A DNA stretch of 64,000 bases. It comes from Candidatus Parcubacteria bacterium. GTDB taxonomy: Bacteria > Patescibacteriota > Saccharimonadia > UBA4664 > JBIOIQ01. Of the stretch, positions 8,100 through 55,773 are shown piece by piece (position 1 is the first letter of the stretch; the number at the start of each line of letters is the position of its first letter). Where the stretch lies: positions 477,373 through 541,372 of the forward strand of contig OY970378.1 of the NCBI GenBank assembly GCA_963718875.1, read 5' to 3'. A program made the position numbers and the translations under genes. Under the pieces are notes generated by a model that ran no database searches, was not told where the DNA came from, and worked only from the letters and a program-made list of their open reading frames with translations.

Positions 8100-9416
8100 A
8101 TGGCGGAAATACTTCCAGAAGTCGAGACTTTTGCTCGAATCAAGGTGATCGGTGTTGGTGGCGGTGGTGGAGCCGCTGTCGAACGAATGATAAAGAGCAA
8201 GGTACAAGGCATAGAGTTCGTGGCCGTGAATACAGACGCGCAAGCTTTGCATTATTCACACGCACAAAGAAAGCTTAATATTGGGAAGCAAACAACCCGC
8301 GGGTTGGGAGCCGGAGCAGATCCAGAAGTTGGTCGAAAAGCAGCCGAAGAGAGCGAGAATGAAATTGCCGAGCTGCTCAAAGGTGCCGATATGGTTTTTA
8401 TTACAATTGGTGCTGGCGGTGGTACCGGTACCGGGGCGGCTCCTATAATTGCAGCAACAGCTCGTGAAACTGGGGCTTTAGTTGTTGGTATAGCTACTAA
8501 GCCATTTACCTTTGAAGGTGAGCGTCGTAGGCGTATTGCAGATGCTGGTATTATTGAGCTTAAAGACAATGTTGATACGCTAATAACAATTCCTAATGAT
8601 CGATTGTTGCAGATGATTGACCGAAAAACGTCGCTTTTGGACGCATTTAGTGTGGTTGATGAAGTTTTGCAACAAGGTGTACAAGGTATATCAGATCTTA
8701 TAACCATTAATGGGTTAATAAACTTAGACTTTGCTGATGTCAAAGCTATTATGCATAATGCGGGTTCGGCATTAATGGGAATCGGCCGTGCCTCTGGAGA
8801 CAATCGAGCGATTGAGGCTGCTCGTCAAGCTATCGATTCTCCTTTACTAGAAGTATCTATTGATGGCGCCAAAGGTGTCTTACTTAATATTACGGGTGGT
8901 CGTAATATGACCATGCATGAGATTGATGAGGCAGCTAAAACAATTACTGGCGCCGTTGATCCTGATGCCAATATTATTTTTGGAGCTGTTCTTGACGAGT
9001 CGTTGGATGATGATATAAAAATTACGGTAGTGGCAACCGGTTTTGAAAATAAGCCCCGTGAAAGGCTTGATCACCATCGAGTTCCTGAGCAAGAACCCGA
9101 ACCCGAGGTCTACACGAGTCCCGTGCTGGCGGAAAACCGTAAGCCCTTTATTGACGAACGCCCCCGCTTTAGTGAGCCGGATGAGGTTGTGGACGAGCCA
9201 GTCATTAGCCCAAGAACAGTTAGCCCACTTGGTAGCATTGAACCAGAGCCCGAAAATTACGATGAGCCGGATAGCTTTTTAAATGATACTCCTCGTCGAA
9301 TGCTGGAAGGGCCTATGATTGAAAAGGCTGAAGAACCCGCTGCTACGGCTAACCGTGATATACCTAGTGATGATGATTTAGATATACCTGCCTTTATTCG
9401 CCGCAAGGTTGAGTGA
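8100..9416 (+). CDS. ftsZ: Cell division protein FtsZ
   Basis: Tubulin signature [10 protein letters not shown]; long acidic/Pro-rich linker; C-terminal peptide [12 protein letters not shown]. Confidence 0.95.
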
Positions 9417-9423
9417 TAGACGC

Positions 9424-9530
9424 TTTCTAAGTGCGCTCTACAGGATCACTCCTGCGGCTATGCACTCCGCGTACCTAGTGTACGTCTCGCTTGCGTTGCT
9501 CGTCGTTCTTTGCAGTGCATCACTTAGAAA
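9424..9530. repeat. Imperfect palindromic intergenic repeat, family copy R1
   Basis: Outer arms TTTCTAAGTG / CACTTAGAAA; core GCACTCCGCGTAC..GTACGTCTCGCTTGCGTTGCTCG resembles the copies at 10201, 51167 and 55492. Confidence 0.7.
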
Positions 9531-9582
9531 TCCTCTATGAAGATTGCTTGCTCTTTTGTTCGCCAAGGGTGTTCATCTTTTT

Positions 9583-9854
9583 CCAATGTCGTCCCGACAC
9601 CTTGCCTTGATTAAGATAGGTACCACCAAACTGTCAGTACTTTTTATTTTTAGCTCTTTAGTCCAGCCTAAGACCGTTTGAGATGATTTATGTCTTTTTT
9701 GGTGTTATCTCAAGTTTATGGCATTCAAAGTCTAAGTTCTGTAGCGAGGGTAACTTATAATCCTTTTGGCTGCCTAAGGTAGTACTTTGACTACTGACAG
9801 TTTGGTGGTGCCTAGTTAAAACACCACCAGTGGATGTGTCTGGTTGATACTTTT
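9583..9854 (+). mobile_element. MITE-like ~270-bp element, copy 1
   Basis: Terminal inverted repeats GGTACCACCAAACTGTCAGTAC (9619-9640) and CTACTGACAGTTTGGTGGTGCC (9791-9812); whole segment recurs reverse-complemented at 26812-27083 with only about ten differences in the core, by hand alignment. Confidence 0.75.
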
Positions 9855-10002
9855 ATAAATGGTATTCGTGATGAATCCCGGCGTTAATTTAAAGAGAGCT
9901 CAAGGCCATTAAAAAGCCACCGTGAGCTCTTTGAAGATCCATTTCGCTACTTAAAAGTATGGCCGTTTTTCGTTTAAGTGGACAGAACCGAAGCCTTTGT
10001 GC

Positions 10003-10031
10003 TTGACAGGCTTAATGGGTTTCGCTAATAT
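10003..10031 (+). promoter_or_regulatory. Strong sigma70-type promoter
   Basis: TTGACA 10003-10008, 17-nt spacer, TAATAT 10026-10031. Confidence 0.6.
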
Positions 10032-10038
10032 AGCATTC

Positions 10039-10140
10039 ATGAAGTCTCAAAAAATGTGTGTACAACTAACCACGACTCGCCGACAAGCTTTGGCTCTTGG
10101 CGTTTTAATTGTGGCCGCACGCAGTGAGAGGCTTTTGTAA
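10039..10140 (+). CDS. Candidate leaderless 33-codon small hydrophobic peptide (or sRNA)
   Basis: ATG lies 7 nt after the -10; translation MKSQKMCVQLTTTRRQALALGVLIVAARSERLL; unit ends at the terminator 10167-10193. Confidence 0.3.
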   Translation: MKSQKMCVQLTTTRRQALALGVLIVAARSERLL

Positions 10141-10166
10141 CTTTTCCTAAAGAGTAGAATTTTTGC

Positions 10167-10193
10167 AAGAGCCTCCAACCGGAGGCTCTTTTT
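10167..10193 (+). terminator. Intrinsic terminator
   Basis: AAGAGCCTCC-AACC-GGAGGCTCTT followed by TTT. Confidence 0.8.
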
Positions 10194-10200
10194 AGTTTTA

Positions 10201-10320
10201 CAACTTACGTACTTGGCACATTTCTGCGGCAGCACTTGTGTTTCTCGCTCAACGTACTTTCGTGTACGTCTCGTTGCGATACTCGGTGCTTTCTTGAACT
10301 GTACTCAAGTGCATAAGTTG
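10201..10320. repeat. Imperfect palindromic intergenic repeat, family copy R2
   Basis: Arms CAACTTACGTACTTGG / CTCAAGTGCATAAGTTG; 5' arm nearly identical to R5 (AACTTACGYACKTGGCACATTTC). Confidence 0.7.
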
Positions 10321-10335
10321 TAAGAATAGCGTTAT

Positions 10336-10412
10336 GGGGACTAGGTGTCTGGGCTATGACACGTCTTGCATTATCGGTGCAAGGAAGGAGGTTCAAATCC
10401 TCAAGTCTCCAC
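10336..10412 (+). tRNA. tRNA-like gene: Ala-type acceptor stem, canonical D and T loops, aberrant anticodon arm
   Basis: Acceptor GGGGACT/AGTCTCC with G3:U70 and discriminator A; D stem GTGT/ACAC with a GG-containing loop; T loop GGTTCAAATCC; anticodon arm is a 7-bp helix with loop TTATCGG (central triplet ATC) and only a 2-nt variable region; CCA not encoded. Confidence 0.5.
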
Positions 10413-10890
10413 TGCAGTACCTACCAAAACCAAAAAAGGGGAAAGTAGTGAGAAATTCTGTTCGAAGCCTCCCTGGATGGACCACCTGTTCTCTTCACTT
10501 TGGGGCGAGTTCTATCGCAGAAGCTCGGGTGAAAGCTCTAGGGTTGGTGGGCATGGCCGATGACGCCTCAGTTAAGGCGGCATTAAGGGGCTGGACCATC
10601 AGGCAGGTGATAGTTCGGGATGAGCGTTTCATCGCTTTGGTCGCAGAGCTAGAAGTTCTTGGAGTACATCTCAAAGAAAAGGGCGTTCCGCGCTCGTGGA
10701 GGGTCTCGAAAGAAGAAGCTTCAACTCTCGCTGCTCAGTAGTACAGGGAGTCGTCCATCTGATGGGAGGAAGCCCAAACAGGGTGGACAAGGGTGCTGCA
10801 AAAAGTTTTAAAGTTGGCGATCCTAACTTTGAGACTTGGCCTCCGAAAGACGTGATAACAGCGTGTCTTTTGGGGGCCTTACCCATGTTA
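10413..10890 (+). other. G+C-enriched segment of uncertain coding status, downstream of the tRNA-like gene
   Basis: ORF 10334..10741 begins inside the tRNA-like element; only its C-terminal ~60 codons (MADDASVKAALRGW..EEASTLAAQ) look protein-like. Confidence 0.25.
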
Positions 10891-26631: not shown

Positions 26632-26811
26632 GGATAGGAGTATATCAGGAAATCGCTCGGCAGGCAACATTAGTGGGTCTGGGTGCTGTCCACTTAAATG
26701 GAACGACCAAGCTTTTAAGTGGCGTAAATGGATCTTCAAAGCGCTCTCGGCGGCTTCTTCTTGGCCCTAAGCTCTCTTATAATTCCGGGAATCATCACTA
26801 ATGTCATCTCT

Positions 26812-27083
26812 AAAAGTATCAACCAGACACATCCACTGGTGGTGTTTTAACTAGGTACCACCAAACTGTCAGTAGTCAAAGTACTGCCTTAGGCAGCCAA
26901 AAGGATTATAAGTTACTCTCGCTTTAAAGCTTAGACTTTAAATGCCATAAACTTGAGATAACACCAAAAAAGACATAAATCATCTCAAGCGGTCTTAGGC
27001 TGGCCTAAAGAGCTAAAAATAAAAAGTACTGACAGTTTGGTGGTACCTGCCTTAATCAAGGTAAGATGGCAGGGCGACATAGG
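26812..27083 (-). mobile_element. MITE-like ~270-bp element, copy 2 (inverted relative to copy 1)
   Basis: TIRs GGTACCACCAAACTGTCAGTAG (26854-26875) and GTACTGACAGTTTGGTGGTACC (27026-27047); reverse complement aligns with 9583-9854. Confidence 0.75.
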
Positions 27084-27246
27084 AACTTAAAAGGATGCCG
27101 CCAACCAACTGTTGGTATTGTTTGAGTAGTAAAAACCTGGTATAGTGGTTTGACATTACAAACTAACCATCAACTTTGGGTTATTAATTCCTCCGCGGCC
27201 TTAAACGAAAGGTGCGGCTGCCTGAAGTGAAGATAAGGAAAAAATT

Positions 27247-38182: not shown

Positions 38183-38665
38183 ATGGTAATAGCCATGCAA
38201 GCCATGAAAAAAGAATTTTATTTAACCGACGAAGGAGTTGTAAGACTCCGAGAAGAGTTGGCTGATTTAGTGCATAACAAGCGGGTAGAAATTGCAGCCC
38301 GTCTCAAAGAAGCAAAAGAATATGGGGATTTGAGTGAAAACATCCAGTGGGACGACGCCAAAGATCAACAGGCTTTTATAGAGGGTCGTATTGCTGAAAT
38401 TGAAAATATTCTTAAGCACTCTAGTAGAATTGAACATCCCAAAGGTTCTAGTGTGGTGGCTCTAGGGTCAACAGTGCACCTTGAGCTAGAAGATGGTGTT
38501 CAACGTTACGTTATTGTAGGCTCGACTGAAGCCAATCCGGAACAGGGAAGAATTTCAAATGAGTCTCCTATAGGCCAAGCGCTATTGGGTAAGAAACCTG
38601 GTGAAGAAGTTGAAGTCGAAGTGCCTTCTGGAACTCTTAAATACAAAATCACCAAAATCGAATAA
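38183..38665 (+). CDS. greA: Transcription elongation factor GreA
   Basis: Coiled-coil N-domain (..EYGDLSEN..) and C-terminal FKBP-like domain; three in-frame ATGs, so the start is uncertain. Confidence 0.9.
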   Translation: MVIAMQAMKKEFYLTDEGVVRLREELADLVHNKRVEIAARLKEAKEYGDLSENIQWDDAKDQQAFIEGRIAEIENILKHSSRIEHPKGSSVVALGSTVHLELEDGVQRYVIVGSTEANPEQGRISNESPIGQALLGKKPGEEVEVEVPSGTLKYKITKIE

Positions 38666-38795
38666 AACTTAATCTTTTGCGCACTTCGGCGTCGTAGCCT
38701 CTAGTTCGCATTCGGCGTATGTCTAATACGCCTCTTTCGTCAGCTGACGGATACGATCTTCGGTTCCTCCTTGAATTGCATCAAAACCTTAAGTT
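38666..38795. repeat. Imperfect palindromic intergenic repeat, divergent family copy R3
   Basis: Outer arms AACTTAA / TTAAGTT, apical hairpin GGCGTATGTCTAATACGCC, ..CACTTCGGCG.. resembles R2/R5. Confidence 0.5.
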
Positions 38796-38891
38796 TCAAT
38801 AACAATGAATAAATAAAGTATTCAAGCATAAGCGTAATGAAAGGACCCCTACGAGGGTCCTTTCTCGTTATAGGGAGAATGGTTTGCTACA

Positions 38892-41237
38892 ATGGCTAGT
38901 ATGAATTTAGAAAGTAATTATTGGCTCAATTTGGCAGTTCGCCAAATTGTACAAAAATACCCGGAAGGTGATTTGGTAGTTTCAAGTGGGATTTCCCCTT
39001 CGGCGTCCTATCATATAGGCCATTTCCGCGAAACACTAACTGCTGATGCTTTAGCTTGGGGTTTGAGGCAGGCTGGGCGCAAAGTTATCCATAAGCACGT
39101 GGTAGATAATTTTGATCCATTGCGTCGCCGCTATGACTTCCTGCCGGAAGAGTATGAGCAGTATGTGGGTTGGCCAATCTGTCTATTGCCCGACCCGTTC
39201 GAGAAATGTATTGATGAGCACAAAACCTACGCCGAGCATTTTTACCGCGAATTTGAGAAGTATGCAGTCGCTATGGGAGTTGGTGGGGAGAAAGAGGAAA
39301 AAGCCGGAAATTTTGTAGCCATCCGCAGTTATGAGCAACTTTACGCCAGTGGCAAGATGGCTCCTCAGATAGAAAAGGTTGTAGATAAAAGTGATCTTAT
39401 TCGTCAAATTTTCAAAGAAGTCTCGAATCGCGATTTGCGTGAGGGGTGGTTGCCGTTACAGCTACTGGGACCAAATAAAAGCTTTAATGAGCTCAAGTTT
39501 AAATCTATCGATGTAGCTGCAAAGATAATAGTTGGAGTTGACGAAAGTGAACACGAGCATAGCCTAGATTACACACGAGGCGAAGTTAAGTTAAACTGGC
39601 GACTAGATTGGCCTGCTCGGTGGCAGATACTTGGTGTCCAAGTGGAGCCATTTGGGGTTCAGGAGCATGGTGCTGCCGGAAGCTCGTATGATACGGGAGT
39701 GGCTTTTAGCGAAAAAGTTTTTGGCTATCCTGCTCCAATGCCAGCCGCGCCTTACGGCAATATTCACCTGCTGGGTGATAATACTAAGATGAGCTCGTCT
39801 AAAGGTAATTTAATCACTCCAGAGCAGGCACTTCAAATAATGCCGGCCGAAATACTCCGATATTTCATTGTCCGAAGCAAGCCTGAGCGGACACTCTATT
39901 TTGATTCCGGGGTTGGACTATTCAACTTAATCGATGAGTTTTCGCAGATTCAAGAGGCCTTATCGAAAGACTTGACACATGAATTTGCTGATGCTTATTA
40001 CTTTGCTACCGCCAATACTACAGCAGAAAAGGTGATCTCAAGTGTGCCGTTTAACCACTTGGTAACGGCATATCAGACCGCTAGAGGTGATTTGAGTCAG
40101 GTCGTGGATATCCTGGCTAGAACAGGCTGGAAGCCGGCTGATAAGGCCGAGGAAGAGGTCTTGGGACGAGAAATCGTCTTTGTCAGTTCCTGGCTGGAGC
40201 GATATGCTCCGGACAGTATAAAGTTTCAAATCCAGCCAAGTTTGCCCAAGGTGCAGTTATCTGATACTCAGAGAGCTTTTTTAGGCCTGTTAGCGGCAGC
40301 GCTAGATAAAGAGGTAATAGCGGATGGTCAAAAAATGCACAATGAAATTTATACGGCTTCTGAAGGGGCTAAAATCAAACCGGCAGAGGCTTTTGAGGCA
40401 CTATATTTGGTGATTCTGAATAAAAAAGCCGGCCCTAAAGCGGGGTGGTTTTTAGCAAGTCTTGAGCACGAGTGGCTGGTGAAGCGATTACGGGAGGCTA
40501 CAGAACAGACTTCGGTGCAATCCGAGGCGGAACCGGTGCAAGATTTGGTGGCTCAGCTTGATCAAGGTAGGCAATTTAAGGTTGAGAGTGATTTGTTGAA
40601 GGCTTTTCCAAATACAGCCATTGGTTATTGCGTGGCGGATATTGAGGTAGAGGGTCGCTCTGATTATGATTTCGAAGGATTAAAATTGGCGCTGGAAATG
40701 GCGGGAGTGACGCTGGATAATATAGCTAATCAACCAGAAATAAAAGCTTGGCGTGAGGCTTACAAGATTTTTGGCGTAAAACCAAGTGATTATCGCAGCT
40801 CGGTCGAGGCATTAGTGAGGCGGGTGTTGGCTGATAAACCTTGGCATGTAAACAGTATTGTAGATACGTATAACGCTGTCTCGGTTAAGTATGTGGTGGC
40901 TATGGGTGCTATGGATTTGGATGAGGCTCATGGGGATATTAATCTTAGATTTGGCAAAGATGGTGAACTGGCTAATTTGATGGGGGTGGAGGAGCCTGTT
41001 GTTGTGAGCTCAAGACAGCCGGTCTATGCTGATGATGAGCAGATTATTACATGGTTGTGGAATTACCGTGACGCGGCAGCTACAGCTGTTACAGCTAAGA
41101 CTAAAAAGGCGGTTTTCTTTATCGATTCGGTGCGAGGGCGAGAGGCTGTTGAGACGGCTTTGAAAGAGCTAGTCAGAGAGCTGGAGCAGAAGCATAGAGC
41201 AAATGTGTTGACTCAAGGGATTCTATCGGCTAGTTAA
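38892..41237 (+). CDS. lysK: Class-I lysyl-tRNA synthetase fused to a C-terminal B3/4 (COG3382-like) domain
   Basis: HIGH (SYHIGH), KMSKS variant KMSSSKG; C-terminal ~220 aa with AWREAYKIFGVKPSDYRSSVEALVRRVL..VNSIVDTYNAVS typical of stand-alone B3/4 proteins; start may be the leaderless ATG 38901. Confidence 0.8.
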   Translation: MASMNLESNYWLNLAVRQIVQKYPEGDLVVSSGISPSASYHIGHFRETLTADALAWGLRQAGRKVIHKHVVDNFDPLRRRYDFLPEEYEQYVGWPICLLPDPFEKCIDEHKTYAEHFYREFEKYAVAMGVGGEKEEKAGNFVAIRSYEQLYASGKMAPQIEKVVDKSDLIRQIFKEVSNRDLREGWLPLQLLGPNKSFNELKFKSIDVAAKIIVGVDESEHEHSLDYTRGEVKLNWRLDWPARWQILGVQVEPFGVQEHGAAGSSYDTGVAFSEKVFGYPAPMPAAPYGNIHLLGDNTKMSSSKGNLITPEQALQIMPAEILRYFIVRSKPERTLYFDSGVGLFNLIDEFSQIQEALSKDLTHEFADAYYFATANTTAEKVISSVPFNHLVTAYQTARGDLSQVVDILARTGWKPADKAEEEVLGREIVFVSSWLERYAPDSIKFQIQPSLPKVQLSDTQRAFLGLLAAALDKEVIADGQKMHNEIYTASEGAKIKPAEAFEALYLVILNKKAGPKAGWFLASLEHEWLVKRLREATEQTSVQSEAEPVQDLVAQLDQGRQFKVESDLLKAFPNTAIGYCVADIEVEGRSDYDFEGLKLALEMAGVTLDNIANQPEIKAWREAYKIFGVKPSDYRSSVEALVRRVLADKPWHVNSIVDTYNAVSVKYVVAMGAMDLDEAHGDINLRFGKDGELANLMGVEEPVVVSSRQPVYADDEQIITWLWNYRDAAATAVTAKTKKAVFFIDSVRGREAVETALKELVRELEQKHRANVLTQGILSAS

Positions 41238-51113: not shown

Positions 51114-51166
51114 ATTAAAGACGGCGACCTTTGACAGTCGAATAATCTAAGATCATTAGAGAAACG

Positions 51167-51282
51167 GCTTGCAACTTTGGCTTATTTCGTCGTTGCAGCT
51201 TGCGCTCCGCACTCACCGTACCATTAAGTACGGTTCGCTTGCGGTGCTCGCTGCGCCTAGAACTAAGTCCAGATTTGCAAGC
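51167..51282. repeat. Imperfect palindromic intergenic repeat, family copy R4
   Basis: Arms GCTTGCAA / TTGCAAGC; core TGCGCTCCGCACTC..CGCTTGCGGTGCTCG shared with R5. Confidence 0.7.
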
Positions 51283-51336
51283 CTTGCAAGAAGTACAAAT
51301 ACAAATCTAATACAAAATACTTGCTTCGCATTAACC

Positions 51337-51403
51337 TGCAAGCAGTTATTGTTTCGTTAACTAGGGGAGACCTATGATGTTAGCGAAACGTTATCTGCTT
51401 GCA
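51337..51403 (+). promoter_or_regulatory. 25-nt inverted repeat upstream of the G+C-rich island
   Basis: TGCAAGCAGTTATTGTTTCGTTAAC (51337-51361) vs reverse complement of GTTAGCGAAACGTTATCTGCTTGCA (51379-51403); four mismatches. Confidence 0.5.
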
Positions 51404-51512
51404 TGAAACTGTGCAAGCGAGGATTCGACACTTAGTCGAATTCAGTTGCTCTACCGAACATACAGAAACCACAGACCAGGGTGAGAACTCTGGCAGAGCA
51501 AAGGAAAAGACC

Positions 51513-52448
51513 ATGTCCGACCAGACCGGAGGACCCGGTACCACCGCCCCACCCCGCCGACCCACGCTCCAGGAGCTCGCCGACCAGGCGAGAGCCACGA
51601 TCGAGGAGCAGGCTCGACAGGCGAATGACCTCCAGGGTCAGCGCTCCGCCATCAACGCGATCAGCGGTCGAGTGGCGCAGCACGACGACGCCATCGCTGA
51701 CCTCCGGGACGCTTCGGCCCAGCAGGCCGACGCCGTGGACCGCCTCGGCCAGCGCACGCTGGTGGTCGAGGGACGCACGGACTCGTTGGAGGACTTGGCT
51801 CGCGCCAACGCCGCCGGCGTGGCCGGGCTGACCGCCAACATGGCTGACCTGACCACCAACGTCAACACGCTGGCCACCACGGTGGGCCAGCACGACACCC
51901 GTCTCGACGCCGTCGAGGACGCCGTGACGCCGGCCGCTATGCGGACGGTCGTCACCGAGGTGGTCGAGGAGCGCATGCGCGCTGTTCGGTTCAACTGGGT
52001 GGCCTTCGCCGTGGTGGCGATCGTGGGCTTCATCATCGACCTGTTGGTGTTCTCCGAGATGGGGAGCTTCAACAGCGCCGAGGCGCCGAAGCTCTCCAAG
52101 CACCTCACGGACGTCATGCACACGCAGAACTTCCTGGCCGTCATGCTCGTTGTCCTGGCCCTCGCCATACTCATCGCCCTCATCGTTCCGGTGGTCGGGC
52201 AGGACGAGCGTCCCAGGCAGGACCGCCAGCCCAGGCCGCCTCGGCAGCCCGGATCCGGCGGTGGTTTCATGGCCGGTCTTCGCAACGTTTGGAGGAGGGG
52301 TCGCGGTACGCCCGCTGCCACTGCGCCCATCCCGGCCAACTCCACGCCGGTGGCGACGACGAACCCGTCGGCCTCGTCCAACGCGCCCACTCAGGTGCTG
52401 CCGGCGGTGCCGACGTCCGGTCCGACGCCCTCATCGGGCAACCCGTAG
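51513..52448 (+). CDS. High-G+C island gene A: coiled-coil protein with two TM helices and a Pro-rich tail
   Basis: AAGGAAAAG before ATG 51513; third codon positions almost all G/C; Ala/Asp/Leu periodic N-terminal ~160 aa, TM helices FNWVAFAVVAIVGFIIDLLVF and FLAVMLVVLALAILIALIVPVV, then RPRQDRQPRPPRQPGSGGG.. Confidence 0.7.
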   Translation: MSDQTGGPGTTAPPRRPTLQELADQARATIEEQARQANDLQGQRSAINAISGRVAQHDDAIADLRDASAQQADAVDRLGQRTLVVEGRTDSLEDLARANAAGVAGLTANMADLTTNVNTLATTVGQHDTRLDAVEDAVTPAAMRTVVTEVVEERMRAVRFNWVAFAVVAIVGFIIDLLVFSEMGSFNSAEAPKLSKHLTDVMHTQNFLAVMLVVLALAILIALIVPVVGQDERPRQDRQPRPPRQPGSGGGFMAGLRNVWRRGRGTPAATAPIPANSTPVATTNPSASSNAPTQVLPAVPTSGPTPSSGNP

Positions 52449-52517
52449 TCCACGCGGTTCTTCAAGTGGATTGTCCCAATTCAAATACCTCCTAGCGTCA
52501 AGCAAAGAGGGAACAAC

Positions 52518-52547
52518 CCTCTGTCCGCCCTTCGGGGCGGACAGAGG
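52518..52547 (+). terminator. Hairpin terminator after island gene A
   Basis: CCTCTGTCCGCCC-TTCG-GGGCGGACAGAGG. Confidence 0.7.
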
Positions 52548-52647
52548 AGCAACTTTTACTTCCATGGATAGTAGTCCGCGTGAGAAGCAATTCTTACTCG
52601 GTTTCTGTTCATGGTGCAATCGGCACCCAAACGATAAGGAGGGTGCC

Positions 52648-53826
52648 ATGAGCACCAGAAGAGGTCCTGTTCTGATCATCGTGTGTCTGCTGATGGCAGC
52701 GGGGGCTTTGCTGTTCAAGTACGGCAACGGCCCAACGCCGGCAGTGGCACAGACGCCGCCCACGGTGCCCGTTTCGGACGTCTGCAAGGACGTCCCGGGC
52801 AACGTGCCGAGGTGGTTTGCCAAGGAGACCGACGGCAACAAGTTCGGTCCGGCGGCTCCGTTTGACCTTGGTCCCGCCAGGAAGGCTCAGCACGAGGTCC
52901 TGTGCCTCGACCCGGCCAACCTGGTGATCACCCAGGAGACCATCGACGGGAAGTTCAGCAGTCCGGCAAACCGGGCTGCCCGGACTCGCGTTCTCGTTGC
53001 CAACCCCACTGCGCGGTTGGCAGCGGTGGCCTATGTGCAGGCAGAGTTGGCCAAGGCCAAGGAGGTTCGGCTGGAGGTCCACACGGGACCCTACCAGACC
53101 TTCTACATGACCACCGACGGCGACGTGCCGGAGGTGTTCCAGTCTGCAGGGAGCTTCACCGAGGCACGGCACGTTCTCGTGTACGACTTCGGTAACGGTC
53201 GCACGGTCAACTTCGTACTGGAGTGCAACTTCCAGGGGGAGTTCCCCGGGCCGGTCAAGAACGTGCCGGTGGCAACGCCGGGCACTGTGCCGGCGCTGGT
53301 TCAGCCGGGGCCCACCAGCCCGCCGCCGACGACGTGCCAGTCGACCAACACCTGTTCGACCGTGACCAGCCCACCGCCCGTGTGCTGCGGACCGCCCCCG
53401 ACGACGTGTCAGGTCAACTGCGGTCCGCCCCCGACGACGTGTCAGGTCAACTGCGGTCCGCCGCCGACGACGTGTCAGGTCAACTGCGGTCCGCCGCCGA
53501 CGACGTGTCAGGTCAACTGCGGTCCGCCGCCGACCGTTTGCACACACAAGTGCGCGGGAGAGGACGTTGCGGTCAGTCCGAGTCTGGATCCTGTCGTTTC
53601 GGGACTGGCTGCGGGCAATGCCGCACCCACTGCGGTGGCAACACCGGTCGTGACGGCGCCTCCGGCGCCGCCTCCGCCCGTGACCACAGCCACGCCACCC
53701 GTGACGGCTCTGCCGTCCTCCGATGGCGTGGCAGCTCCACCGCCTGTAGTGGCTCCACCGTACGTGGCGCCCGATGCGGGCACTCCGTCCAACCCGACGA
53801 CGGGAACCATTCCGCCGCCGCCGTAG
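52648..53826 (+). CDS. High-G+C island gene B: secreted or anchored protein with CGPPPTTCQVN tandem repeats and a Pro/Ala/Val-rich tail
   Basis: AAGGAGGG RBS 5 nt before ATG 52648; N-terminal signal/anchor MSTRRGPVLIIVCLLMAAGALLF; ~220-aa globular region; 11-aa Cys/Pro repeats; ORF track start 52150 overlaps gene A and the terminator. Confidence 0.7.
   Translation: MSTRRGPVLIIVCLLMAAGALLFKYGNGPTPAVAQTPPTVPVSDVCKDVPGNVPRWFAKETDGNKFGPAAPFDLGPARKAQHEVLCLDPANLVITQETIDGKFSSPANRAARTRVLVANPTARLAAVAYVQAELAKAKEVRLEVHTGPYQTFYMTTDGDVPEVFQSAGSFTEARHVLVYDFGNGRTVNFVLECNFQGEFPGPVKNVPVATPGTVPALVQPGPTSPPPTTCQSTNTCSTVTSPPPVCCGPPPTTCQVNCGPPPTTCQVNCGPPPTTCQVNCGPPPTTCQVNCGPPPTVCTHKCAGEDVAVSPSLDPVVSGLAAGNAAPTAVATPVVTAPPAPPPPVTTATPPVTALPSSDGVAAPPPVVAPPYVAPDAGTPSNPTTGTIPPPP
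53386..53535 (+). repeat. 33-bp tandem repeat, about 4.5 copies, in frame within gene B
   Basis: TGCGGTCCGCC(C/G)CCGACGACGTGTCAGGTCAAC repeated head to tail with one or two substitutions. Confidence 0.95.
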
Positions 53827-54037
53827 GACACCACTTCTGCCCATTCGGGCAGGGGTCTACCCCAGGGTCTGGGGTGGTGCGCAAGCGCCACCCCGCCCTG
53901 TGGGTATACATATTCTTAATGATTTTGGATTATTCGATTGCTCCAAGGGTTAGTGCCCTTTAACATTTAGCGTCCAACTTAACTTGTAGATCATATTAAA
54001 TTCATTTTAACGTTCATTATTTAAAAGGAGAGCACAT

Positions 54038-55479: not shown

Positions 55480-55491
55480 GTGTCTGAGGCA

Positions 55492-55623
55492 GAACTTACG
55501 CACGTGGCACATTTCGGCGCAAAGACTGCGCTCCGCACTCGTCCCCGGATCAAGTCCGGGGCAGGCTAGCGCTTGTTGCGGTGCTCGTCTTTGCATCCGA
55601 ACTGCACTCACGTGCGTAAGTTC
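55492..55623. repeat. Imperfect palindromic intergenic repeat, family copy R5
   Basis: Perfect 15-bp outer arms GAACTTACGCACGTG / CACGTGCGTAAGTTC; core TGCGCTCCGCACTC..GCGGTGCTCG; apical hairpin CCCCGGAT-CAA-GTCCGGGG. Confidence 0.8.
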
Positions 55624-55773
55624 TGGGGCAGGATCTGGACGCTCATCCGGCTAAGAGTTACTGAAACGGAGCATCCTCACCAGGGCGGGGACTTCCTGTT
55701 TAGCATGACAATTGGAGGTTAGATGCTCTTAAAACGAAGGTGATTTAGTCGTTGCTAGGGTATAATTAGGCTT

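Follow-up and report, generated by a model that had tools for sequence, protein, structure and literature searches.

Several kinds of short palindromic repeat have been described in bacteria. MITEs (miniature transposable elements with inverted repeats) such as Correia/NEMIS of Neisseria and RUP of Streptococcus pneumoniae are non-coding, intergenic and 100–155 bp long. They have inverted arms and frequently TA termini, fold into a long stem-loop, occupy strain-variable sites and include internal-deletion variants (PMC2229807). The subject of this text is a family of non-coding palindromic elements, 113–137 bp in length, of which five copies (R1–R5) lie in a stretch of 64,000 nucleotides of Candidatus Parcubacteria bacterium (assembly GCA_963718875.1, contig OY970378.1, positions 477,373 to 541,372). 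This whole stretch is called the window below, and loci from other genomes and metagenomes are given as L with a number.

Repetitive extragenic palindromes (REPs) are units of 20–40 bp with a stem of 5–13 bp, a short loop and a GTAG or CGTC head (PMC3733652). They lie mainly downstream of open reading frames (ORFs), between unidirectional or convergent genes, and their termini often supply a TAG stop codon (PMC3733652). Dimers of REPs form hairpins about 100 nt long and may be embedded in longer palindromes (PMC3733652). Mosaics of modules occur in REPs, in REP doublets forming hairpins (REPINs) and in bacterial interspersed mosaic elements (BIMEs; PMC3733652; PMC3337134). Enterobacterial repetitive intergenic consensus sequences or intergenic repeat units (ERIC/IRU) of enterobacteria, and the Rickettsia palindromic elements (RPEs), are imperfect palindromes of about 105–150 bp in transcribed regions near genes, and some of them give codons (PMC2229807).

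In systems with REP-associated tyrosine transposases (RAYTs), the enzyme is encoded elsewhere in single copy. HUH/Y1 transposases, including those of the insertion sequences (IS) IS200/IS605 and RAYT, read a folded single strand and insert in a polar manner 3' of a short target. The orientation of the palindrome-associated transposable elements (PATEs) of IS200/IS605 is tied to the lagging-strand template.

Insertions differing between close relatives

The elements of the present family are insertions that differ between close relatives, and they are non-autonomous. Both properties follow from sites that are filled in one genome and empty in another, and from the lack of any recurrent or transposase ORF near the copies. 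All five palindromes listed in an earlier note on this DNA were confirmed where it had placed them. The count of five is exact: a first covariance model, built from the five copies and applied unfiltered to both strands of the 64 kb, returned only these five as full matches (81–118 bits), all in + orientation. The best unrelated match in the window reached 14 bits, and reverse-strand echoes of the five loci 21–38 bits.

R2 (120 bp, 10201..10320, 118 bits) is a clean insertion, with TA on both sides (10199–10200 and 10321–10322) and just one TA where the site is empty. Its neighbors are the terminator of a small ORF (10167–10190) on one side and a tRNA-like sequence (10336–10412) on the other. 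Syntenic loci were compared in relatives whose FtsZ is 80–88% identical, or whose GreA is 81–93% identical, to that of the window. The filled site reads ...TTTTTAGTTT-TA-[120 bp]-TA-AGAATAG...GGGGACTAGG in the window, and the empty one ...TTTTTTAGTTC-TA-AGCTGAAC...GGGGACTAGG in L204, where FtsZ is 88% identical. The junctions are thus AGTTT-TA-[element]-TA-AGAAT in the window and AGTTC-TA-AGCTG in L204. R2 is also absent from L201. The idea that the core was inserted into pre-existing host hairpins was rejected, because the empty R2 site of L204 has no such arms and arms can be aligned within a clade.

R1 (117 bp, 9419..9535, 81 bits) starts 3 nt past the ftsZ stop codon TGA (9414–9416) and is flanked by TA at 9417–9418 and 9536–9537. 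Its arms are GACGCTTTCTAAGTG / CACTTAGAAATCCTC. Four relatives, L204, L206, L205 and L201, have no element after the ftsZ stop, and L203 has one there whose arms are quite different. The spacer between ftsZ and the tRNA-like sequence is about 920 nt long in the window vs about 225 nt in L204, a difference due to R1, an unrelated repeat of 365 nt and R2.

This second repeat has two inverted copies in the window, at 9581–9944 and 26726–27085 (306 nt at 92% and 59 nt at 83%). Each contains an internal inverted repeat of 22–32 nt, GGTACCACCAAACTGTCAGTA...TACTGACAGTTTGGTGGTRCC. L204 lacks the copy after ftsZ, which is therefore an insertion too; the other copy is upstream of rpmE. L206 has, at about 1880–1900 and downstream of the terminator of the small ORF, a mini-palindrome of 17 nt, TA-TAACTTGATAAGTTG-TA, which resembles the outer arms of R2 minus the whole interior. 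It could have been left by a deletion or be the footprint of an excision.

R3 (132 bp, 38665..38796, 97 bits) is a divergent copy with an extra internal hairpin. It starts on the final base of the TAA that ends greA (38663–38665) and stands upstream of a terminator-like hairpin of greA (about 38843–38870). From the greA stop to the conserved AGTAYTCAAGCATAAGCG, the window is longer by about 147 nt. L208 and L209 lack the element at this site, and their greA and lysS are separated by only 79 and 64 nt, respectively. In L207, the closest relative (GreA 93% identical), the contig ends 4 nt past the greA stop, with the first bases of R3.

Relatives also have private copies. L205 has one between rpsU and yqeY, which form an overlapping TAATG in the window and in L201. 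L209 has one directly after the mreB stop, at a site that is empty in the window and in L208. The short metagenome contigs of L204, L205, L206 and L207 end 4–390 nt downstream of ftsZ or greA, at or near repeat sites, and the family probably fragments metagenome assemblies.

R4 (118 bp, 51166..51283, 117.5 bits) stands just inside a high-GC island, at its left edge. The flank on its 5' side, ...GATCATTA, belongs to the host and is conserved in the relative L209. R5 (136 bp, 55490..55625, 99.6 bits) starts 10 nt past the terminator of a gene for an LPATG protein and lies upstream of a release-factor gene. Its outer arm is a perfect 17-bp stem, its ends read GCAGAAC ... GTTCTGG, and in place of the usual apical hairpin it has CCCCGGAT..GTCCGGGG and a side hairpin.

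The full-length MAFFT alignment of R1–R5 has a mean column identity of 65%. The shared blocks quoted in the earlier note are present: R2 and R5 have 27 nt in common at 89%, and GCRCTCCGC and CGCTTG..GYTGCTCG occur in R1, R4 and R5. The self-complementary outer arms are likewise real, and each of the five copies folds into one long hairpin. The note had placed most copies just after convergent or terminal genes. Positions just after genes are found for ftsZ, greA and the gene of the LPATG product; the convergent part of the claim does not hold, as the flanking genes are tandem.

Structure and conservation of the hairpin

The minimum free energies (MFE) of R1–R5 are −32.6, −43.6, −38.4, −56.9 and −79.7 kcal/mol, with z-scores of −2.0, −5.2, −4.3, −6.6 and −10.9 against dinucleotide shuffles. 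On the minus strands, folding is as good as on the plus strands. A definition of the element ends by the outermost MFE pair was too noisy, with stems extending spuriously into the flanks, and was not used.

The base of the element consists of complementary outer arms of about 20–25 nt, which evolve fast. They are followed by a first conserved internal loop, with 5' C-K-K-C-G-T opposite 3' G-C-C-T-Y-G. The two motifs, CKKCGT on the left and GCCTYG on the right, are not mutual reverse complements. The stem between the loops is variable and perfectly compensated, for example CCGCACGC/GCGTGCGG, CTGCCCGC/GCGGGCAG and CAGCCGGC/GCCGGCTG. The second conserved internal loop has CTCAM opposite NCTCG. 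The tip is an apical CGTAC-loop-GTACG hairpin and, like both internal loops, is conserved across lineages.

Within the clade of the window, the interior from CATTTC to GAACTG is 85–90% identical between copies at different loci and in different genomes. The copies compared include R4 and those of L203 (after ftsZ), L205 (after rpsU) and L209 (after mreB). The arms of these same copies have almost unrelated sequences, yet they are always complementary.

The earlier note had left the choice between an RNA structure and a DNA palindrome to covariation. With a plain MAFFT alignment of 21 diverse copies as input, RNAalifold recovered the apical stem only, because the arms are too divergent to be aligned by sequence. 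Covariation was therefore counted on a model-based alignment of 94 copies, which, being fitted to the covariance model, leans towards the structure; the margin is nonetheless large. Standard pairs occupy 83.3% of the pair cells, compared with 57.5% in column shuffles and 32–45% with slid partners. Double-sided changes were found in 35 of 39 pairs (832 cells vs 266 expected from shuffles), and the covariation score of 0.489, vs 0.130, was reached by none of 500 shuffles. The outer helix 1, with 14 pairs, has 86.7% of its cells paired.

G-T and A-C make up 3.3 and 2.5% of the helix cells, respectively. Since these two are nearly equal and both strands fold, there is no sign of pairing selected in an RNA from one strand. 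As far as sequence alone allows, the evidence favors a palindrome of the DNA, which is maintained at the DNA level, or on both strands.

In L203 (11300–11440), the arms of the copy after ftsZ reach into the gene. The final three ftsZ codons, GTAGAATAG, are paired with ...CTAGTTATTCTAC downstream, and an inverted copy of host coding sequence is thus present on the far side of the element. This suggests that the palindrome was extended, for example through template switching.

Distribution in other genomes

The family is real and multi-copy, as the earlier note had proposed. It had named a lack of real similarity and an absence of further copies as grounds for giving the proposal up; the similarity is real, and scanning loci of other genomes with the model yields further copies by the dozen. 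The first model found copies in 2 of 80 ftsZ loci from other genomes (E = 1e-12 to 1e-8), neither of these genomes being part of the model. L048, a metagenome-assembled genome (MAG) of Candidatus Uhrbacteria, has two full copies and a 67-nt internal-deletion derivative at 9927–9993. L054, a second MAG, has a copy in its ftsZ locus. Both share the apical motif CTCAMCGTAC-N5-7-GTACGNCTCG.

The exact apical pattern matches at least 120 metagenome stretches. A second covariance model, built from 38 copies, found 94 full copies in 80 metagenome loci among the matches listed, on contigs of 39–76% GC. Several of these contigs hold two to four copies, and L093 has three of them head-to-tail within 400 nt (2579–2979). 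Other clustered high-GC contigs, including L134 and L139, have three or four copies within 10–14 kb.

The family also occurs in distantly related uncultured bacteria of soil and groundwater. Neighboring genes include those for LptF/LptG, a heptosyltransferase, SurA, Pup ligase and proteasome subunits. These neighbors imply that some of the hosts are diderm and outside the Patescibacteria. The EgtB that flanks one high-GC locus has its closest named relatives in Methylomirabilota (61–63% identity), and some hosts are probably Methylomirabilota-like diderms.

Rfam 15 gave no match at gathering score in the window, and only noise on the elements at E <= 10 or E <= 1. The earlier note could not assign the family a name, and no Rfam family matches it. 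The exact apical pattern had no match in viral contigs, and blastn with two high-GC copies found none in a plasmid collection. Full-text literature searches revealed no description of the family, which is weak evidence given the coverage of the literature.

Position, polarity and flanks

Sixty-four copies have a called gene on each side, and these are arranged as tandem sense (29), tandem antisense (16), convergent (16) and divergent (3). Of the 87 copies with a called upstream gene, roughly 40 have their 5' end −13 to +9 nt from the stop of a gene in the same orientation. Convergent genes opposite the 3' end are typically 20–230 nt away from it. In the Saccharimonadales clade, 8 of 8 copies are co-directional with genes, and contact with the stop codon is made with TAG, TAA and TGA alike.

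Copies of the abundant high-GC clade have three arms, in the order A (CAGGMTGCTGAAAAAG), core, A' (CTTTTTGAGCAKCCTG) and A'' (GTTTTTCCGCAGCCTG). A'' is found 0 or about 60 nt past A'. The outer arms, A on the 5' side and A'' on the 3' side, have similar flanks: TAG stands at the outer flank of A in 40 of 74 cases (54%) and of A'' in 9 of 20 (45%), and CTAG in 26 of 74 (35%) and 7 of 20 (35%), respectively. For the inner arm A' the corresponding numbers are 3 of 66 (5%) and 1 of 66 (2%), and the background in these loci is 0.46% for TAG and 0.07% for CTAG. The base before TAG at arm A (n = 40) gives CTAG 26 times, TTAG nine, GTAG three and ATAG two. Flanks of the window copies are TA or variable. 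High-GC copies can also be mosaic, the same arms enclosing unrelated interior modules (e.g., L116 4912–5062 and L131 640–822).

The two outer arms differ in their relation to genes. ORFs of 80 codons or more have their end within −12 to +14 of arm A in 50 of 74 cases. The stop codon lies exactly at the arm A boundary in 22 of 74, and 20 of these stops are TAG; a TGA built into the arm serves as stop in 13. At arm A'' an ORF end is near in 2 of 20 cases and exactly at the boundary in none of 20, where symmetric ends would lead one to expect six exact contacts (P about 0.001).

The + strand of the window has positive GC skew throughout and carries nearly all genes. All five window copies are on this G-rich leading strand. 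Their placement is consistent with a polar single-strand model but does not discriminate.

Comparison with described systems

The family resembles MITEs in being small (<200 bp), non-coding, multi-copy and dispersed among unrelated housekeeping genes. It also shares with them terminal inverted arms, a long stem-loop, sites filled or empty between related genomes and, in L048, an internal-deletion variant. It differs from Correia and RUP in that its arms are variable and its interior conserved. Furthermore, it spans phyla and is not limited to one genus, and its association with stop codons is polar. RUP has a cognate IS, IS630-Spn1, but the present family has no known one. The resemblance proposed with Correia concerns behavior, Correia having a specific terminal repeat of 24–26 bp and Neisseria as its host, and this family being hosted by Patescibacteria and high-GC soil bacteria.

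Likeness to the REP/REPIN/BIME systems, which depend on RAYT, is seen in extragenic hairpin palindromes located downstream of genes, in TAG stops and in mosaics. Unlike a REP, the element is a single hairpin of 113–137 bp with a (C)TAG or TA flank and no conserved GTAG or CGTC head. REPINs consist of two conserved inverted REPs and a variable spacer; the family does not belong to them, because here the apex and internal loops are conserved and the arms vary. The REP/BIME- or Correia-like behavior proposed in the earlier note is borne out. Dispersed intergenic palindromes, filled and empty sites in relatives, gene-downstream positions and BIME-like module mosaics in high-GC lineages agree with it, but the elements are not members of the REPs, being too long and lacking the GTAG/CGTC head.

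PATEs of IS200/IS605 would be similar in their polar insertion 3' of a short target, possibly without duplication, and in the recognition of structure and not of sequence. The location of all five window copies on the G-rich strand is consistent with a link to the lagging-strand template. The flanks were also compared with what a PATE would give: TAG or CTAG is found at the 5' flank, and ORFs end at arm A and not at the opposite end, but CTAG also follows the 3' outer arm. PATEs have two short subterminal hairpins and no terminal inverted repeats, in contrast to the one whole-length foldback of this family, some lineages of which have three arm copies. ERIC/IRU and RPE are similar in size, imperfect palindromy and gene-adjacent position. 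They differ in host range and sequence, and RPEs are in-frame inside genes, whereas the present elements are at or just outside the stop.

Mobilization and alternative explanations

No enzyme or gene family was found to be linked with the elements. Among 286 neighboring ORFs (two batches of 136 and 150 proteins) there was no transposase family. The two batches contained 173 and 145 different Pfam families, none recurring more than three times. Pairs of arms enclosing an ORF, as expected of an autonomous copy, were looked for around the copies and none were found, nor was an autonomous IS with matching ends within a few kb around each copy. Ten window ORFs that are on the minus strand or unassigned are housekeeping genes.

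The family is reasonably likely to consist of non-autonomous foldback DNA elements of the MITE/REPIN kind that are mobilized in trans. Mobilization of the single-strand HUH type is proposed more tentatively. The element itself encodes nothing and would depend for its movement on an enzyme supplied from elsewhere in the genome. This enzyme would read the folded single strand, that is, structure and conserved loops and not the sequences of the arms. Insertion would be polar, 3' of a short TAG-like target, as in the case of the HUH (Y1) transposases of IS200/IS605 and RAYT. An insertion in sense orientation would land just past a stop codon and be harmless, whereas an element placed the other way round at the same CTAG would come to lie within the gene and be eliminated. 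The inserted element would then be carried in the 3' untranslated region (3'-UTR) as a strong hairpin, any benefit to the host being putative. Polar single-strand insertion is proposed as the cause of three features: conserved structure and loops with free arms, sense landing at stop codons, and the loss of insertions placed the other way round at the same CTAG. R3-like copies between stop and terminator are surely transcribed with the gene, and the elements may affect the fate of the mRNA as a by-product.

A wider and somewhat more doubtful proposal is that of an unrecognized class of single-strand, hairpin-recognized mobile elements. Their apical core and two loops would be the recognition site for an HUH-type or other structure-specific enzyme, and their arms would be free. 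They would insert in a polar manner 3' of stop codons and would have spread from Patescibacteria to Methylomirabilota-like bacteria.

Several observations weigh against trans-mobilization by polar single-strand insertion. No candidate transposase was seen, the reading being confined to a few kb around each copy. The ends of known IS200/IS605 and the REPs form short hairpins of 20–40 nt and not one long hairpin of 120 nt, and REPINs have conserved arms and a variable center, the reverse of what is found here. Orientation is not uniform, as 29 sense copies stand against 16 antisense ones between tandem genes, and the directions of genes and of replication are inseparable in a gene-dense, strand-biased genome. 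Some junctions have no TA at all (L209 mreB, L205 rpsU and R5), and many copies have TA or CTAG at both outer ends. The empty R2 site cannot separate a TA duplication from a TA borne by the element. Compensation in the stems could arise without selection, via template switching at quasi-palindromes. Finally, the metagenome copies were retrieved by the apical pattern, and the invariance of the apex among them is by construction; the motif also occurs in copies that were identified in other ways, in the window, L048, L054, L203, L205 and L209.

TA at both ends is the classic signature of a TA-duplicating DDE transposon (IS630, Tc1/mariner). The elements might accordingly be classical cut-and-paste MITEs moved by a TA-targeting DDE transposase of this kind, with arms acting as terminal inverted repeats bound as double-stranded DNA and insertion into CTAG duplicating the central TA. 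This is thought unlikely, although it accounts for the TA on both sides of R1, R2, L203 and L048a, the single TA at the empty R2 site and the (C)TAG at both outer arms in the high-GC clade. The arms of that clade are well conserved, and their initial CAGG is similar to the ends of Tc1/mariner. Bacterial MITEs as described (PMC2229807) also agree with the elements in size, in lacking coding capacity, in TA termini and in the long stem-loop. Symmetric duplication, however, predicts that both orientations are equally harmless at a stop codon, and stops are exact at arm A in 22 of 74 cases vs 0 of 20 at the other outer arm. The arms, as the expected transposase binding sites, should not be the least conserved part next to an interior conserved at 85–90% between genomes, pairing is kept along the entire length and not at the ends alone, and no transposase with such ends was seen around the copies.

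REP elements near stop codons affect translation and mRNA decay. In a similar manner, the family could be a cis-acting 3'-UTR module of RNA kept for its function, which protects mRNA 3' ends, is a site for RNase III or another protein, or modulates translation or transcription termination; this is judged distinctly improbable. The start at or a few nt from the stop of a co-oriented gene, the excess of sense over antisense copies between tandem genes (29 and 16), and the position of R3 between the greA stop and the terminator, which implies co-transcription with greA, all agree with it. The predicted hairpins are very stable, and conserved unpaired nucleotides would suit recognition by a protein. 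RNA roles have also been discussed for REPs (PMC3733652). Against it, there is no excess of G-U over A-C, R2 and R5 are downstream of intrinsic terminators, and one third of the tandem-gene copies are antisense. No gene family is attached to the elements, which are patchy in Patescibacteria (2 of 80 ftsZ loci), and ftsZ, greA, mreB and rpsU carry a copy in one relative but not in the next. No T-run follows the hairpin, which is hence not an intrinsic terminator. That role was also rejected for the window on its own, where none of the five copies is followed by a T-run and a terminator scan of 9300–10500 called 10167–10190 and not the elements. Multi-copy genes for trans-acting small RNAs or self-cleaving ribozymes are a very remote alternative. 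They would explain conserved loops within covarying helices and the location of all five window copies on one strand, but not the lack of Rfam matches even at E <= 1, the pairing statistics that are symmetric between strands, the abutting of stop codons or the filled and empty sites among close relatives. Moreover, a scan of 9300–10500 gave no promoter-like site before R1 or R2, the sole one in this span being that of the small ORF. Least probable of all are attC sites of integrons, or other tyrosine-recombinase sites marking gene cassettes. The size is within the attC range of 57–141 bp, attC-like features are seen in the imperfect palindromes with unpaired bases, and the elements start at the stop of a co-oriented ORF. 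Yet the ends (GCAGAAC ... GTTCTGG in R5, GCAGG ... CCTGC in the high-GC clade) misfit RYYYAAC ... GTTRRRY, the flanks are syntenic core genes (ftsZ, greA, lysS, prfB, mreB) and not promoterless cassettes, and no integrase is nearby.

Other features of the window

Genes flanking the copies in the window are ftsA, ftsZ, ileS, greA, class-I lysS, a gene of the SDR family and release factors. FtsZ and GreA have their closest named relatives in Candidatus Saccharimonadales/Saccharimonadia. The best match of the window's FtsZ among GTDB species representatives is only 69% identical.

Between R1 and R2, at 10003–10195, a near-consensus promoter (TTGACA-17-TAATAT) is followed by an ORF of 33 codons (MKSQKMCVQL...) and then by the intrinsic terminator at 10167–10190. 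This small gene is kept at the same place in L204, L201 and L206. The tRNA-like sequence at 10336–10412 is called by ARAGORN as tRNA-Asp with an odd ATC anticodon. It scores 22.9 bits on the Rfam tRNA model, under the cut-off of 29 bits, and its 5' part is conserved in L204. In the metagenome loci L141 and L103, copies of the family are found 4–9 nt from genuine tRNA genes.

The class-I lysyl-tRNA synthetase downstream of R3 (38892–41237) has 781 amino acids and a C-terminal B3_4 domain. In L208 (10551–12652) and L209 (10536–12611), the synthetase has 524–527 amino acids and is followed by a separate ORF of 132–135 amino acids. The difference may reflect a gene fusion in the window or a split in the relatives.

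The high-GC island next to R4 (51400–53950) has 58–65% GC, compared with about 45% elsewhere, and its GC skew is reversed. Its ORF at 52150–53826 has no Pfam match and contains 33-nt tandem repeats (53352–53549). A 24-nt inverted repeat bounds the island (51135–51158 and 53917–53940), the left arm being host sequence conserved in L209. The island may be horizontally acquired DNA or an assembly chimera.

Significance

Small palindromic repeats are usually confined to one genus, and the reduced genomes of Patescibacteria are thought to be poor in repeats. The family is unusual in that phyla have its core in common while its arms vary freely, in the polar way it touches stop codons, and in being abundant in a Patescibacteria genome of reduced size. 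It makes up about 1% of the 64-kb stretch in a genome of 1.19 Mb, and one intergenic region has expanded about four-fold relative to a close relative. The covariance model can be used to mask or annotate the elements in MAGs. If polar insertion directed to stop codons is true, the conserved core would provide a handle for finding the enzyme that moves the family, and a selfish element would be able to multiply in a gene-dense genome without harming its genes.

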